Positions 56,484 to 62,612 of a stretch of 64,000 nt of DNA are shown here, piece by piece. The stretch comes from a virus: the IMG/VR virus record IMGVR_UViG_3300027763_000037, positions 47,922-111,921 of that record; one strand, 5' to 3'. The notes below the pieces were generated by a model. The model searched no databases and was not told the origin of the DNA. It saw only the letters and a list, made by a program, of their open reading frames with translations. The translations under genes and the position numbers were made by a program. Every line of letters starts with the position of its first letter. The stretch's first letter is position 1.

Positions 56484-56510
56484 ATCCTGAGCAAGATCTA
56501 AAACTGCTCA
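56484..56510 (+). ncRNA. Compact H-type pseudoknot motif, copy 1
   Basis: ATC-CTGAGCAA-GAT-CTAAAAC-TGCTCA. Confidence 0.7.
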
Positions 56511-56705
56511 AAGATTTTCCTAGCGTGTCGTCCACAGGTTATCCACAAGTCATTTAAGAAGTTATTTACGACACGCCCGAAATTTTGTGAATTTTATCAC
56601 ATAGATTGAGCGTCTTACTATTTGGAATTACTCAGCAGTAGGTAGATAAATGTCAGCCCAAAATGATAGGATTACATAGTAATAAGATAAAGAAAGAAGG
56701 CAGAA

Positions 56706-58377
56706 ATGACCGCAGAAACAATAGACCAAAATGAGTTTTATTTTATCAAAGATGAAATGAGATTTTGTTGTGATGAGTCACAATTTAAGTATGTCTGTAA
56801 AGCCCACGGCGAGGCTATGGGTTGCTACTACCACGAGTTTGATTACACAGAGGATTGCGAGGAACAACACTAATGGGATACATTGAGATTTTTAGAATTG
56901 ACAACGAAGGCGCAGGTTGGATAGACTTGGAGCAAGCAACACCAGATGAGTTATTTAACTTAGAGGTTGGATTGCTTAATGAAGGCGCACTATTTACCAC
57001 TAAGGAGAACGACTAATGGAATACCTATACGCAGTAACAGTATCGTATGATAGCAAGCCCGTACATTGGACAGGGCGTTACTCAGACGCACTATCCGCAG
57101 TTAATACTTTTAATACTTTTGAGGATTGGGGATTTGCTGATGAGTACGCAACAGTTAATCTTTCAGAGCCTTCAGGTAAATTACACACTAAGACTTTCTA
57201 TCGTGAAGGCAGAAGGGTTGTGACTAAGTAATGCCATTATACGAATTTACTACTTTCATAACTATCGAGGCAGACAACGAAGAAGATGCCGTCCGTTGGT
57301 TTGACTATAAAACCGAAGATTTAGAAACCTATGTCGCAGAAATTGAGGAGAAATAATAATGGGAAGCGTAACAGCAATTGGATTAGCAGATAGCGTATTA
57401 GATTTAGAAACGCAGTTAGCCTATCACTTACAAGGTAATCACTACCCACCCGTACCACTTTCTATGGTACAACCTTGTATTGATGCTATTGACGCATACT
57501 ATGATGAGGACTATGACCGATTTATTGCTATGCCCGAAGGCGTATTCTATAAGGGTATGAGTCACGCACCTGCCCACGCTATTGTAGATCAACACCACCT
57601 ATCTTGGTTCATTGACCCAGTAGATGAATACGAGGATAACGAATAATGTCTAAGGGCTATAAAGTAAGCATGTATCATGAGTTTTATCTTGAAACTACCG
57701 ACATTGAAGAGGTAATGAAAAATTACCAATTCCCTGATTTTTGCGACTGCGAGTCTATCATTGGCGAGCCTGAATTTCTAATCAACAGTAACTCATGGGT
57801 AGAAATGTCAGACTCAGAATTAGATGCGGAGTTCGCATGATGACAATAAATAAATGCCCTTGTGATGAACACGACTGCCTTAATCAAGATGACTACACGA
57901 AGGACGGGGACACTTGCGAAGAGTGTTTTATGGATTGCGTAGAAATAGATGAGGATGAGTAAATGCCGTCTAAAGCACCAACCGCACTTTCTTCAAAACA
58001 CTTAGGTCAAAGTAGGTATCAAGGACAAAGTAAAATGTCAGAACTTAAAATGCTTTACTCAAAAGGCAATGGCTATGAAGGTCGCTATGACTTTCCAGTA
58101 ACAGTAACGAAAATTGAAGATAAGGATAATAATGCCTGATACAATGAAAACTATGAAATTGATCCACGCAGATAACTTAACACCAGACCAAGTAATGCTT
58201 GGTGATTTAATTAAAGTTGATGAGGACATTGTTGAAGTAATTTTTATTGAAAGTGATTCTACTGGAGATAACTATGACATACAAACTCAAAACGAATTTG
58301 GTGAAAAAGAAGTTAATCAGTATAGTTACACTGATACAATTCCTCTCTATGTTTTTGTAGATGAGCATGACGAGTAA
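56706..58377 (+). CDS. Operon of small early genes (including 56706-56873, 56873-57016, 57016-57231, 57231-57356, 57359-57646, 57646-57840, 58132-58377)
   Basis: Coupled ORFs with SD motifs; 57359-57646 carries LQGNHYPPVP; followed by a hairpin at 58386-58413. Confidence 0.6.
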
Positions 58378-58490
58378 TAAGAATTAATTTTGTGTGCTTC
58401 CCCGCACAAAATTTTCCTAGCGTGTCGATGTGAGATTGATCACAGATTTAAGATTTGACATTTTAAGACGATGTATGCTAAGATTAGTTT

Positions 58491-58634
58491 ATGACAACAA
58501 AGAAAAACGCTGAGGAATTACGCAGACTTATGGAACTCCGTAGGTCTAACGCTGCCTCTGCCGTACCTTCTAAAAAGGCTTACAACCGTAAGAAATGTCA
58601 GTCCGAACTGCTACAATTAAAATATAACAAATAA
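58491..58634 (+). CDS. 47-aa basic leaderless microprotein with an ELRRSNAA motif
   Basis: ATG lies 6 nt after TTGACA-N18-TAAGAT; MTTKKNAEELRRLMELRRSNAASAVPSKKAYNRKK... Confidence 0.6.
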   Translation: MTTKKNAEELRRLMELRRSNAASAVPSKKAYNRKKCQSELLQLKYNK

Positions 58635-58650
58635 GAAAGGTCGCCCCACT

Positions 58651-58820
58651 ATGACATTCGAAAACGATGAAATCTATGATGAATACTACGCAACAACCTG
58701 CCCTGAATGTAAAGAAAATGCCGTTGACGCATATGAAGAAAAGTGTACACACTGCTTACTTGAAGAAATGTCTTATACCTATAATGAAGACATTGCCTTA
58801 GAGATGAGCCTTGGTCTTGA
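58651..58820 (+). CDS. Small acidic zinc-finger protein
   Basis: CPEC...CTHC; SD GAAAGG. Confidence 0.55.
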
Positions 58821-60918: not shown

Positions 60919-61347
60919 ATGGACCAGCAAGTAAGCACACCAGCACCAACAGTTAATGAAACACAAGAATTTCTTCGTGACTCTTTAGCCAAGACAACAT
61001 TGCGTGTAACACAATTAGAAGAGCACATCCAAAAAGTAACTCAGCGCTCATATCAAGATTCTGCAGATAAAAATCGTATGGTTGAATCAATGCAAGAATG
61101 GACTCTTTGTGAATTAGAAAACCAAGACATCACAGAAGAGCAAGCCGAAGCAATTGCAGAAATTATGGGCTTTGAATTAACAAAAGAATTCGAAGTTGAA
61201 GTTACTGTTATGTACTCAGTGACTGTTAATGCTCGCAATGAAGAAGAAGCACAAAATGCAATTCACGATATTGATTTTGATACTGTGCAATACAATTCAG
61301 ATTCAATTGGGTATCTATCGTCTTCAATTGATAGAATAGATATTTAG
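60919..61347 (+). CDS. Hypothetical acidic coiled-coil protein
   Basis: Start revised to ATG 60919 (SD GAGG); C-terminal V-x-A-x-x-EEEA domain. Confidence 0.7.
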   Translation: MDQQVSTPAPTVNETQEFLRDSLAKTTLRVTQLEEHIQKVTQRSYQDSADKNRMVESMQEWTLCELENQDITEEQAEAIAEIMGFELTKEFEVEVTVMYSVTVNARNEEEAQNAIHDIDFDTVQYNSDSIGYLSSSIDRIDI

Positions 61348-61361
61348 TAGGGGGCTACTAA

Positions 61362-61389
61362 TAAACCTGAGCACGTTTAAAAACTGCTC
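61362..61389 (+). ncRNA. Pseudoknot motif, copy 6
   Basis: TAAAC-CTGAGCAC-GTTTA-AAAAC-TGCTC. Confidence 0.7.
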
Positions 61390-61554
61390 CTCTTTTCCCT
61401 CAAAATTTTCCTAGCGTGTCGGTGTGATATTTATCACATATGTTTAAGATCACATTTAAGAAATGTCCGAATTGCCCTATGTCTGGCTATACGATTTGAC
61501 TTATGTCAGCCCATACTGCTATACTTGAAATTCAACAACAGAAAGAAGGAAATC

Positions 61555-62577
61555 GTGGCTCACGATATTGAAACTCAAAACGGCAAGGCATCATTCGCAT
61601 CATTCCGTGAACCTGCTTGGCACGGATTAGGTACAGTCTTTACAGAAGAAAAGACAACCGCAGAAATGTTGGAAACAGCAAATTTAAATGGTTGGAATGT
61701 TCGTCTTGAAGATATGGAAACACCTACACACTTAACAAGCGACAAGGCATACCAATATGTTTTGCGTACTAACCCTACAGATAACTCTCAGACCGACATT
61801 CTTGGAATTGTTGGCGAACGCTATCACCCACTACAGAATGAAGATTTATTCTCATTCGGTGACAATATTCTTGACGGCGGGGGTCGTTGGGAAACGGCTG
61901 GCTCAATCAAGGGTGGTCGTGTTGTATTCGGTGCTTTAGCATTAGAGCGTGAAACAATTCTTGACCCTAACGGCGTGAGCGATAAGGTAAAAACTTATTT
62001 GCTCATCAACACATCACACGATGGTTCTATTGCCATTCAAGCAAGCATCACACCTGTTCGTGTTGTATGCGCTAACACTCTTAACCTTGCGCTTGGTGGC
62101 GTAGGTCGTAAGAAGAATAAGGGCATCAAGCAATCTTTCAAGATTCGCCACACACAAACCGCTAACGGCAAGGTACAAATTGCTCGTGAAACTCTTGGTC
62201 TTGCTAATGCTTATATGGACGAATTTGATATTATGGCTAAGGCTATGATTGAAAAAGAAGTTTCTGCTAAGCAATTCAATGACATCATTCTTGCTGCTTA
62301 TGCTAAGCCAGAAAAAGATTCTAAGGGTTCAATGAAAAAGTGGGAAAATAAAGTTGATGTCATCAACGATATTTACACTGGTGAATTTAACGGAATGATT
62401 GCTGGTAATGCGTGGGGTGCTTTCAATGCGCTAACTGAACGCCTTGACTGGTATCGTTCTGCTCGTGGTGGTTCTAACGAATCCATTCTCGCATCAGCAT
62501 CAGGATTTGACCCTGCTATTAACGCAGAAAAAAATCGTTTGCTAAAAGTTGTACAAAATGTTATGTCCTTAGCATAA
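61555..62577 (+). CDS. DUF932 / TIGR03299 phage-plasmid protein
   Basis: AHDIE...PAWHGLG, LQNEDLF, ETAGSIKGG, NTSHDGS, TPVRVVCANTL and AWGAFNALTE motifs; GTG start with SD AAGGA. Confidence 0.9.
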   Translation: MAHDIETQNGKASFASFREPAWHGLGTVFTEEKTTAEMLETANLNGWNVRLEDMETPTHLTSDKAYQYVLRTNPTDNSQTDILGIVGERYHPLQNEDLFSFGDNILDGGGRWETAGSIKGGRVVFGALALERETILDPNGVSDKVKTYLLINTSHDGSIAIQASITPVRVVCANTLNLALGGVGRKKNKGIKQSFKIRHTQTANGKVQIARETLGLANAYMDEFDIMAKAMIEKEVSAKQFNDIILAAYAKPEKDSKGSMKKWENKVDVINDIYTGEFNGMIAGNAWGAFNALTERLDWYRSARGGSNESILASASGFDPAINAEKNRLLKVVQNVMSLA

Positions 62578-62584
62578 CAAAAAA

Positions 62585-62612
62585 ATATCCTGAGCAAGAT
62601 ATAAAACTGCTC
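62585..62612 (+). ncRNA. Pseudoknot motif, copy 7
   Basis: ATATC-CTGAGCAA-GATAT-AAAAC-TGCTC, 9 nt upstream of the tRNA. Confidence 0.7.

Follow-up and report, generated by a model that had tools for sequence, protein, structure and literature searches.

The seven repeats found in a 64,000-nucleotide stretch of phage DNA (the window; positions 47,922 to 111,921 of IMG/VR record IMGVR_UViG_3300027763_000037) are copies of a compact H-type RNA pseudoknot of 27-30 nt. This phage and hundreds of unrelated phages place the element a few bases after the end of a gene. It is not catalogued in Rfam 15, and no paper describing it was found. Its function can only be inferred from sequence and context. 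The most likely role, proposed tentatively, is that it shields the 3' end of the upstream message from RNA-degrading enzymes.

Copies of the pseudoknot in the phage genome

All seven copies reported in a sequence-only reading of the window were recovered at their positions on the plus strand, so that the observation itself is confirmed. A 24-nt core pattern with up to 3 mismatches found exactly these seven, whereas 100 dinucleotide shuffles gave a mean of 0.17 and none reached seven. A covariance model (R1) built from copies of other phages scored them at 30.7-47.7 bits (E values of 1e-5 to 1e-10). In the whole 112-kb genome it found exactly eight copies, the eighth at G000:C1:10767-10803 of that genome, outside the window; the next best hit had an E value of 0.25. 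As the sequence-only reading had claimed, stem 1 pairs in every copy with a different sequence, and all copies are intergenic and on the coding strand. The loop pairs with the downstream segment in 5 of 5 positions in five copies (two of them with one G-U pair) and in 4 of 5 positions in copies 2 and 4.

Copy 1 (56484..56509, 43.8 bits) has the stem 1 AUC/GAU and a complete stem 2, starts 10 nt after the stop codon at 56471-56473 and is followed by a regulatory region. Copy 2 (60061..60087, 39.8 bits) starts 11 nt after the stop at 60047-60049 and carries GGCUC as its 3' strand. The same AAAA-GGCUC variant recurs in at least 8 copies of other phages. Copy 3 (60611..60637, 43.3 bits) has the loop GAGUA with one G-U pair in stem 2 and starts 35 nt after the stop at 60573-60575, with a predicted hairpin in between. 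Copies 4 and 5 lie in an ORF-free stretch of 290 nt (60576-60865). Copy 4 (60689..60714, 30.7 bits, E value 1e-5) is the weakest, with the loop AAGUA, the 3' strand UGCUG and a terminal A-G opposition, and is also preceded by a predicted hairpin. Copy 5 (60830..60856, 43.6 bits) has the loop GAGUA. Copy 6 (61362..61389, 44.0 bits) has a stem 1 of 5 bp and starts 14 nt after the stop at 61345-61347. Copy 7 (62585..62612, 47.7 bits) also has a stem 1 of 5 bp and starts 7 nt after the stop at 62575-62577, which ends a DUF932 gene. The succession of DUF932 and pseudoknot is conserved in relatives (14 of 92 upstream genes are phrog_1221).

Promoter-like sequences are found close to some of the copies. 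A TGTCAG-N10-TATAAT sequence at 60095..60116 (plus strand) begins 7 nt after the end of copy 2, and the same arrangement (60866-60887) begins 9 nt after the end of copy 5; it also follows copies in three other sequences, L034, L058 and L059. In this phage all eight copies lie upstream of the next promoter or regulatory region and none lies between a promoter and its gene. Copy 7 ends 9 nt before a tRNA-Asp (GUC) at 62622..62696 (plus strand), identified by ARAGORN and by the Rfam tRNA model (68.7 bits).

Covariation supports both stems

Compensatory changes support both stems in more than 170 copies, which come from IMG/VR phage contigs, from bacterial assemblies of many phyla and from three GenBank phages (a cyanophage, a crAss-like phage and a Latilactobacillus phage). 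Stem 1 consists of 3-5 variable pairs closed by C-G, which is present in 175 of 176 distinct copies. The loop reads C-U-GAGCA-W, where C-U is loop 1, GAGCA is the 5' strand of stem 2 and one unpaired base (A or U in most copies) lies at the junction. An A-rich linker of 5-7 nt ends in AAAC, and UGCUC then pairs with the loop. Pairs 6-19 and 7-18 of stem 1 are formed in nearly all of the 176 distinct copies (one exception), with four pair types each, and no shuffled or slid control approached the observed covariation. Stem 2 was examined with a scan that did not require pairing between loop and tail. Of 25 hits whose loop was neither GAGCA nor GAGUA, 12 had a perfectly complementary tail, against 1 of 25 in the control, and all five positions covary. 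The orthologue of copy 5 in the relative L253 has the stem 2 AGGUA/UGCCU, which amounts to two compensatory double changes. C-C-U precedes GAGCA in 128 of 133 copies when this was not forced by the search.

The inference of the sequence-only reading that the repeats form an RNA structure and not a DNA operator is therefore right. A DNA-level element (an operator, an upstream promoter element or a hairpin extruded from single-stranded DNA) is very unlikely, although three of the eight copies lie within about 10 nt of promoter-like sequences. The stems vary freely while pairing is kept, which a sequence-reading protein would not allow. G-U pairs are common in both stems and would be C-A mismatches on the complementary strand. 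In addition, the orientation follows the coding strand, and most copies elsewhere are not next to promoters.

It had been stated beforehand that a match to a described Rfam family would remove the novelty of the element. A scan of 55500-64000 against Rfam 15 at E values up to 10 gave only tRNA and noise-level snoRNA hits, and 60590-60880 (291 nt) gave nothing.

Position after genes and possible function

The element is strand-specific and anchored to the upstream stop codon. The gap between stop codon and stem 1 has its mode at 5-6 nt with a sharp floor, and the gap between stop codon and closing C peaks at exactly 8 nt (23 of 94), with only 2 copies closer. In the 2-10 nt bin there are 72 copies on the same strand and 7 on the opposite strand. 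In contrast, the distance to the next start codon is broad, above 100 nt in 70 of 128 cases. No canonical terminator follows any of 104 pseudoknot-bearing gene ends. A tRNA on the same strand follows at 4-14 nt in 18 of 170 copies and at 33 nt in one more, while no copy follows a tRNA. This asymmetry is inflated by synteny, since 13 of the 19 are tRNA-Asp, mostly from relatives. One copy sits 6 nt before a type III hammerhead-like sequence that scored below threshold. Flanking genes are unrelated to each other and the apparent hosts span many phyla, which points to a universal partner or a self-contained physical effect.

What the analysis shows is that the repeats belong to a large, uncatalogued family of pseudoknots transcribed as part of phage messages; that they act in cis as a gene-end barrier, and that they resist any nuclease, is inferred. 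In this view the element would sit as close to the stop codon as a terminating ribosome allows, so that no naked RNA is left after the reading frame. When the read-through transcript is cut downstream, at a tRNA 5' end, at a ribozyme or in the AU-rich promoter region, 3'-to-5' exonucleases would trim back and stop at the knot, leaving each upstream cistron as a stable, capped message. The 5' end of a tRNA is an RNase P cut site, and cutting at tRNA-Asp would leave copy 7 at a new 3' end. In this phage the element takes the slot where a terminator would be expected, in repeated modules of promoter, gene and pseudoknot. We prefer this explanation to each of the others but hold it with less than even confidence. 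The closest characterised folds, luteovirus frameshift knots and coremin, are known to resist machines arriving from the 5' side and not from the 3' side. Stem 1 is AU-rich and the nested fold is only about -5 kcal/mol, so any strength must come from tertiary contacts that are inferred only. About a third of the copies are more than 25 nt from a long ORF, and copies 3-5 of this phage close non-coding segments. Such strong conservation of loop and linker sequence is also more than a passive barrier obviously needs.

The interpretation offered in the sequence-only reading is thus partly supported. Of the functions it proposed, a nuclease-blocking or processing element fits the genomic context best, whereas a mimic of type III antitoxin (ToxI) RNA and a ligand-binding motif are not supported. 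It recognised neither that the motif is widespread well beyond this phage nor that it is anchored to the upstream stop codon.

The spacing between stop codon and stem 1 (floor of 4 nt) equals the spacer of -1 frameshift stimulators. It would place the first pair at about +11 to +12 from the P site, where the ribosomal helicase acts, with the knot at the mRNA entry site when the stop codon is in the A site. A ribosome-directed element might thus modulate termination or recycling, or stop post-termination ribosomes from sliding on and so insulate the translation of neighbouring units. The ribosome is a partner common to all hosts, and coremin elements block scanning ribosomes and stimulate frameshifting. 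However, the same spacing is expected for any structure that must stay folded next to a translated ORF, the stop codons are ordinary (UAA 66, UAG 16, UGA 5), tRNAs, promoters or early stops follow so that there is no downstream frame to shift or read into, and about a third of the copies do not follow a long ORF. We consider this explanation unlikely.

Slightly more doubtful is a recognition signal for an endonuclease or another factor, either a tRNA-acceptor-like minihelix cut or tagged by tRNA-processing enzymes or a factor-dependent termination or pause signal. Loop 1, the junction and the linker are conserved far beyond what pairing requires. The base after UGCUC is A in 100 of 141 copies and A-C-C-A follows in 15 of 141, far above chance for AT-rich DNA. 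A coaxial stack of about 10 pairs ending in a single-stranded tail resembles pseudoknotted tRNA-like acceptor arms. On the other hand A-C-C-A is present in only about a tenth of the copies, and the A may simply extend stem 2 by pairing with the loop U. The placement just before other cut sites suggests that the knot does not itself cause the cut. The element occupies the terminator slot, but it does not conform to an intrinsic (Rho-independent) terminator: it lacks both a GC-rich hairpin and a regular U-tract, the tail after UGCUC is mostly A followed by pyrimidines, and only 39 of 170 copies have four or more T within 12 nt.

Comparison with known pseudoknots

The coremin motif (xrRNA-C) and its Watson-Crick variant xrRNA-WCC are found in beny-, cucumo- and other eukaryotic RNA viruses (PMC6546385, PMC10520033, PMC10321173). 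Coremin is an Xrn1-resistant RNA of only about 20-30 nt in which loop-to-spacer pairing gives a compact H-type knot a few bases after the last stop codon. Its hairpin 1 has 3-4 bp with an essential C-G loop-closing pair (PMC6546385), which the phage element shares, as it does the essential pyrimidine at the first loop position. The conserved spacer of coremin has an essential AAA followed by C-U-A-C; in the phage element AAA followed by C is invariant or nearly so, and what follows is UGCUC paired by Watson-Crick rules. The coremin loop is 4-8 nt with a YGAD-type consensus (YGAD or YGNNAD), whereas the loop here is 8 nt and only its first pyrimidine and final A-D resemble that consensus. Stem 2 of coremin has 3 pairs or non-canonical contacts, as against 5 Watson-Crick pairs here, although the Watson-Crick variant forms a true stem 2 and lies 8 nt after the last ORF. 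The hosts of coremin-bearing viruses are eukaryotes with Xrn1. Coremin further requires a second hairpin directly downstream for nuclease resistance. The 30 nt after the phage knot fold no better than controls 100 nt further on (mean -2.25 against -2.87 kcal/mol; fraction at or below -6 kcal/mol 0.10 against 0.12).

These resemblances speak for the main rival explanation, a coremin-like roadblock against 5'-to-3' machines (RNase J exonuclease, or RNase E scanning from a 5' end). It would protect the RNA downstream, so that a long phage transcript decays in separately shielded sections. In its favour, the architecture also matches the BWYV-type knots that resist the ribosomal helicase coming from the 5' side, and many copies lie 10-30 nt before a ribosome-binding site, for example before the scaffold and capsid genes of the Latilactobacillus phage. 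However, since every copy in this phage is upstream of the next promoter, transcripts started there lack it at their 5' end. Moreover, the anchoring is to the upstream stop and not to the downstream start, no copy follows a tRNA, and some apparent hosts are beta- or gamma-proteobacteria (although MAG binning is uncertain), which are not known to possess RNase J. We regard this explanation as unlikely, though less so than the remaining alternatives.

The -1 frameshifting pseudoknots of luteo- and enamoviruses (BWYV, PLRV, PEMV-1) have the same minimal architecture, a comparison also made in PMC10321173. They combine a stem 1 of 4-5 pairs, a loop 1 of 1-2 nt starting with C, one unpaired junction base and an A-rich loop in the minor groove of stem 1, and they resist the ribosomal helicase coming from the 5' side. 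In the phage element the secondary structure of this kind is supported by covariation, while the minor-groove contacts are inferred only. The spacing to the A-site codon is also the same. In contrast, stem 1 of the phage element is AU-rich instead of GC-rich and stem 2 is longer. Frameshift knots lie 5-9 nt after a slippery heptamer with an overlapping -1 frame; the phage element does not fit this description, a judgement that rests not on a search for heptamers but on its position after true stop codons and before tRNAs, promoters or untranslated RNA, and in this window no frame continues through the copies.

Intercistronic 3' stabilisers of bacterial and phage messages, such as the REP hairpins of malE-malF and the RNase III-processed 3' hairpins of T7 early mRNAs, are likewise repeated structured elements placed after a cistron inside a longer transcript and proposed to stop 3' exonucleases and set the relative stability of the cistrons. 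Those are plain stem-loops, specific to a species or a phage and supported by experiment, whereas the element described here is a sequence-conserved pseudoknot shared across phyla, whose stabilising role is inferred from sequence alone.

It is possible, though less likely than not, that the element is a prokaryotic-virus counterpart of the exoribonuclease-resistant RNAs of eukaryotic RNA viruses, either convergent with or evolutionarily linked to coremin. It would be a minimal knot that by itself halts processive host RNases, and perhaps ribosomes, and that phages of most bacterial phyla use as a universal punctuation mark to turn long transcripts into individually stable messages. If the gene-end reading holds, this would be one of the most widespread cis-acting RNA structures in phages, missing from Rfam and from the papers searched. 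It would explain how phages with few canonical terminators define and stabilise individual messages, and would bring nuclease-resistant RNAs, so far a theme of eukaryotic viruses, to bacteria. It would also provide a portable part of 30 nt for tuning mRNA stability and insulating genes in synthetic operons. Because the motif is short and sharply defined, it is also a useful marker for annotating gene ends and transcription direction in uncultured phage genomes.

A small-ligand sensor or a protein decoy, including a ToxI mimic, is very unlikely. In size and topology the element resembles the preQ1-I aptamer (RF00522), an H-type pseudoknot of about 30-34 nt with an A-rich tail, and several unpaired bases are conserved. 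However, no match to this family was found in the Rfam scans, the one-base junction leaves no room for a ligand pocket, and the eight copies per genome follow the stop codons of unrelated genes and do not lie in the 5' leaders of queuosine or transport genes or of any one pathway. ToxI-like RNAs form tandem arrays of near-identical 34-45-nt repeats next to, or matching, a ToxN-family toxin locus, whereas the seven copies here are dispersed over 6 kb and have different stems. No ToxN_toxin match was found in the genome, but the control genomes were silent too, so this does not prove the absence of such a gene. The distribution across many phyla also argues against one phage- or host-specific protein. 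What might be said in favour of this reading is that copy 5 lies, together with a tentative second and unrelated H-type pseudoknot, after a block that is 93-98% conserved among relatives; this block could be a promoter and so give a tiny transcript made only of knots. The second pseudoknot (60802..60827, plus strand) lies directly upstream of copy 5 and has the stems CAGUU/AACUG and ACACC/GGUGU. In the relatives L253 and L069 both of its helices change sequence but still pair.

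Repeats of the window and their distribution among phages

The stretch 56484-62612 lies in the rightward, + strand block of small early genes of a phage record of 111,921 bp, which CheckV rates as complete. The phage has a G+C content of 36.7% and encodes a DUF932 protein whose best relatives are in Streptomyces, Mycobacterium and Microbacterium phages, a protein of the mycobacteriophage Gp88 family and a PASTA-domain protein. A low-GC actinobacterial host is therefore likely, although the evidence for it is indirect. A megablast search of GenBank phages with the 8-kb region gave no match.

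The sequence-only reading had listed seven repeats in this stretch, and all seven are present exactly where it placed them. A 24-nt core pattern with up to three mismatches found these seven and nothing else, whereas shuffled sequence gave 0.17 on average and never seven. An eighth copy, with a loop two bases longer, was located at C1:10767-10803 in the coordinates of the complete record, outside 47922-111921. It belongs to the same + strand block, which continues across the ends of the record.

The motif is not private to this phage. An exact search of IMG/VR for the two conserved halves returned at least 120 loci. Of 146 matches, 103 had the same 24-nt spacing, and the bases flanking the loop paired with a different sequence in almost every copy. 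We aligned 107 copies and built a covariance model which contained stem 1 only and thus carried no information about the pseudoknot. This model recovered further, more divergent copies in the same loci. In the genome of the window it gave eight hits at E 2e-11 to 1e-6, and the next hit was at E 0.25.

The same pattern also occurs in bacterial assemblies, where about 73 of 124 matches have a proper stem 1. The raw pattern counts in IMG/VR and in the genome collection are partly due to chance. About 40% of the bacterial hits lack stem 1 and lie in coding DNA; only hits with stem 1 were counted as family members. The true ones come from Saccharibacteria, Lachnospiraceae, Clostridium, Ligilactobacillus, Anaerolineae, Calothrix, Omnitrophota, Polynucleobacter and others, and are presumably prophages or mis-binned phage contigs. 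Three GenBank phages carry one copy each: cyanophage S-RIM4 of Synechococcus (MK493321, 45609-45643), the crAss-like phage cr8_1 and Latilactobacillus phage TMW 1.2272 P1, an inducible prophage of Latilactobacillus curvatus (OQ240260, 21263-21299).

No Rfam 15 family matched the motif in scans at E up to 10 of 8.5 kb and again of 291 nt. Literature searches on phage pseudoknots, xrRNAs and structured-RNA catalogues, and for the literal 9-mer, found no description of the element in phages, although it may sit unnamed in the catalogue of 10,006 viral structured RNAs (PMC10690425), whose contents were not compared. The one hit for the 9-mer is a coincidence at a plant-virus 3' end.

Covariation and conserved bases of the pseudoknot

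The two pairs next to the closing pair of stem 1 form standard pairs in all but one of 176 distinct copies, with four pair types each, and the closing pair is C-G in 175 of 176. The covariation score is 0.40-0.43, against 0.10 in shuffles and at most 0.07 when the partners are slid. The hits of the model are biased towards the consensus of stem 2, yet they already show G-C to A-U changes and many U-G wobbles. For an unbiased test we scanned 2.1 Mb for stem 1 plus C-C-U plus AAAC only. Among 25 hits whose loop pentamer was neither GAGCA nor GAGUA, 12 had a perfectly complementary pentamer after AAAC, while the control pentamer matched in 1 of 25 and about 0.2 would be expected at random. The pairs include GGGUA/UACCC, GGCCA/UGGCC, GGACA/UGUCC, AAGCA/UGCUU, AGACA/UGUCU, AAAUA/UAUUU and GGGCG/CGCCC, so all five positions covary. 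The orthologue of copy 5 in a relative with 75-98% nucleotide identity in this region reads AGGUA/UGCCU. Because only UGCUC is shared with a boxA (NusB-E) site, and this stretch is base-paired and covaries, we rejected that identity.

G-U pairs are frequent and the fold exists only on the coding strand, so the structure is RNA. The interpretation in the sequence-only reading was partly supported: its inference of an RNA structure rather than a DNA operator was upheld, but a ligand-binding motif and a ToxI-like decoy, which it had also considered, are unlikely, as are DNA-level readings. A search of the genome for the ToxN family gave no match, but the control genomes were silent as well.

Some unpaired bases are also conserved. 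Without being forced, C-C-U precedes GAGCA in 128 of 133 copies, and in the linker AAA is invariant and the following C nearly so. In a recurrent variant, to which copy 2 of the window belongs, the linker C and the first U of stem 2 change together to A and G, which suggests a tertiary contact at the helix junction. An extension of stem 2 by pairing of the loop U with the following base is plausible, since A or G follows in 109 of 141 copies, but it shows no covariation because the U hardly varies. In the copies of the IMG/VR loci L001-L120 the four bases after the knot are A-C-C-A in 15 of 141 and A-C-C in 24, and G is almost absent at positions +2 to +4. This resembles a tRNA 3' end and is not explained by the pairing model. 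Together with the strong sequence conservation, the enrichment of A and of A-C-C-A might indicate a processing or recognition signal, but this explanation remains doubtful.

The overall layout is stem 1, a two-base loop starting with C, stem 2, one junction base and an A-rich loop, which is that of the minimal luteovirus frameshift knots, a comparison also made in PMC10321173. The nearest characterised RNAs are coremin and its Watson-Crick variant, which block 5'-to-3' machines. The phage element shares coremin's essential C-G closing pair and first-loop pyrimidine. Its linker has AAA followed by C, as the essential part of the coremin spacer does, but what follows is UGCUC, paired by Watson-Crick rules, and not C-U-A-C. 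On the other hand, the obligatory second hairpin of coremin was not found after the knot, and the loop consensus differs. A block to 5'-to-3' machines is the main rival to the explanation favoured below, but it is rather unlikely on present evidence. We regard the element as a compact, coremin-like viral H-type pseudoknot in a new host domain and with a different consensus.

Placement of the pseudoknot at gene ends

The element is tied to the end of the upstream gene. In 170 non-redundant copies the gap from the stop codon to the first paired base has its mode at 5-6 nt, with almost nothing below 4. Measured to the closing C, 23 of 94 lie at exactly 8 nt and only 2 are closer. This pattern is absent on the opposite strand, where 7 copies fall in the 2-10 nt bin against 72. 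The distance to the next start codon is broad. The helicase site of the ribosome lies near +11 and its leading edge near +15 from the P site. By this geometry the observed floor is the closest that a structure can sit to a stop codon without being melted by the terminating ribosome. The frameshift-like spacing is also the basis for a ribosome-directed role, which we consider doubtful.

Flanking genes are diverse, and the only recurrent neighbour is the DUF932 family, which reflects synteny among relatives. Nineteen copies are followed by a same-strand tRNA, eighteen of them at 4-14 nt, and none follows a tRNA. Thirteen of the 19 are tRNA-Asp, so the number of independent cases is nearer five. 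In an unrelated IMG/VR contig (L004) one copy sits 6 nt before a type III hammerhead-like sequence (L004:13778-13836), which has all core bases, with CUGANGA and GAAA intact, but scores 32.1 bits and thus falls below the Rfam gathering score of 48.5. It was the only case, and a gathering-level Rfam scan of 13 loci found only tRNAs and a tmRNA. The tmRNA match (47.3 bits) lies at L104:11486-11558, about 90 nt downstream of a copy in a 70-kb IMG/VR contig (L104). Because it covers only 73 nt against a model of 374 positions, it may be a tRNA-like fragment.

In the phage of the window four consecutive units have the form promoter-like TGTCAG-N10-TANNNT, gene, pseudoknot. The next promoter-like site begins 7-9 nt after copies 2 and 5, copy 8 abuts an extended -10, and no copy lies between a promoter and its gene. 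The only canonical terminator in the region, at 58393-58408, is at a gene end that lacks the knot. None of 104 pseudoknot-bearing gene ends has a canonical terminator within 70 nt, against 49 of 1578 other ORF ends, but this difference is too weak to be significant.

What the analysis establishes is a transcribed, strand-specific and structurally constrained RNA knot at gene ends, shared by phages whose apparent hosts span many phyla. Its function is inferred from context alone. Because the neighbours are unrelated and the hosts are diverse, the partner must be universal or the effect must be physical. The placement after the stop codon, before the next promoter, before RNA cut sites and never after a tRNA fits best with a cap that ends up at or near the 3' end of the upstream message. 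There it would stop 3' exonucleases, as REP hairpins and the RNase III-processed hairpins of T7 do. We favour this explanation over the others, but only tentatively.

Neighbouring elements in the window

A stretch of 290 nt without ORFs (60576-60865) holds three copies, each preceded by a predicted hairpin. It looks like an array of small non-coding modules bounded by the knot rather than by genes, and parts of it are shuffled among relatives. Within it, a 41-nt block at 60760-60800, starting TTCGCCAGGCTG and ending TACTATAGAG, is 93-98% identical in relatives whose coding flanks are 70-85% identical, and could be a promoter or a protein site. A second, unrelated H-type pseudoknot candidate (60802-60827) lies directly before copy 5, and both of its helices change sequence but keep pairing in the relatives L253 and L069. 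If the conserved block is a promoter, it would give a transcript of roughly 60 nt made only of two pseudoknots (60802-60856).

The promoter-like sites of the form TGTCAG-N10-TANNNT (60095-60116, 60866-60887, 56651-56674 and others) have no -35 hexamer at the usual distance. The genes behind them share a leader ending in an ACAGAAAGRGG-like sequence before the start codon. Four palindromes of the CRP/GlxR type (TGTGA-N6-TCACA) are present at 56586-56601, 58429-58444, 61422-61437 and 62727-62742. Each lies about 5 to 50 nt after a repeated box (TTTTCCTAGCGTGTCG or a variant) and upstream of a promoter-like site, and they are candidate operators for a host or phage regulator of the CRP family.
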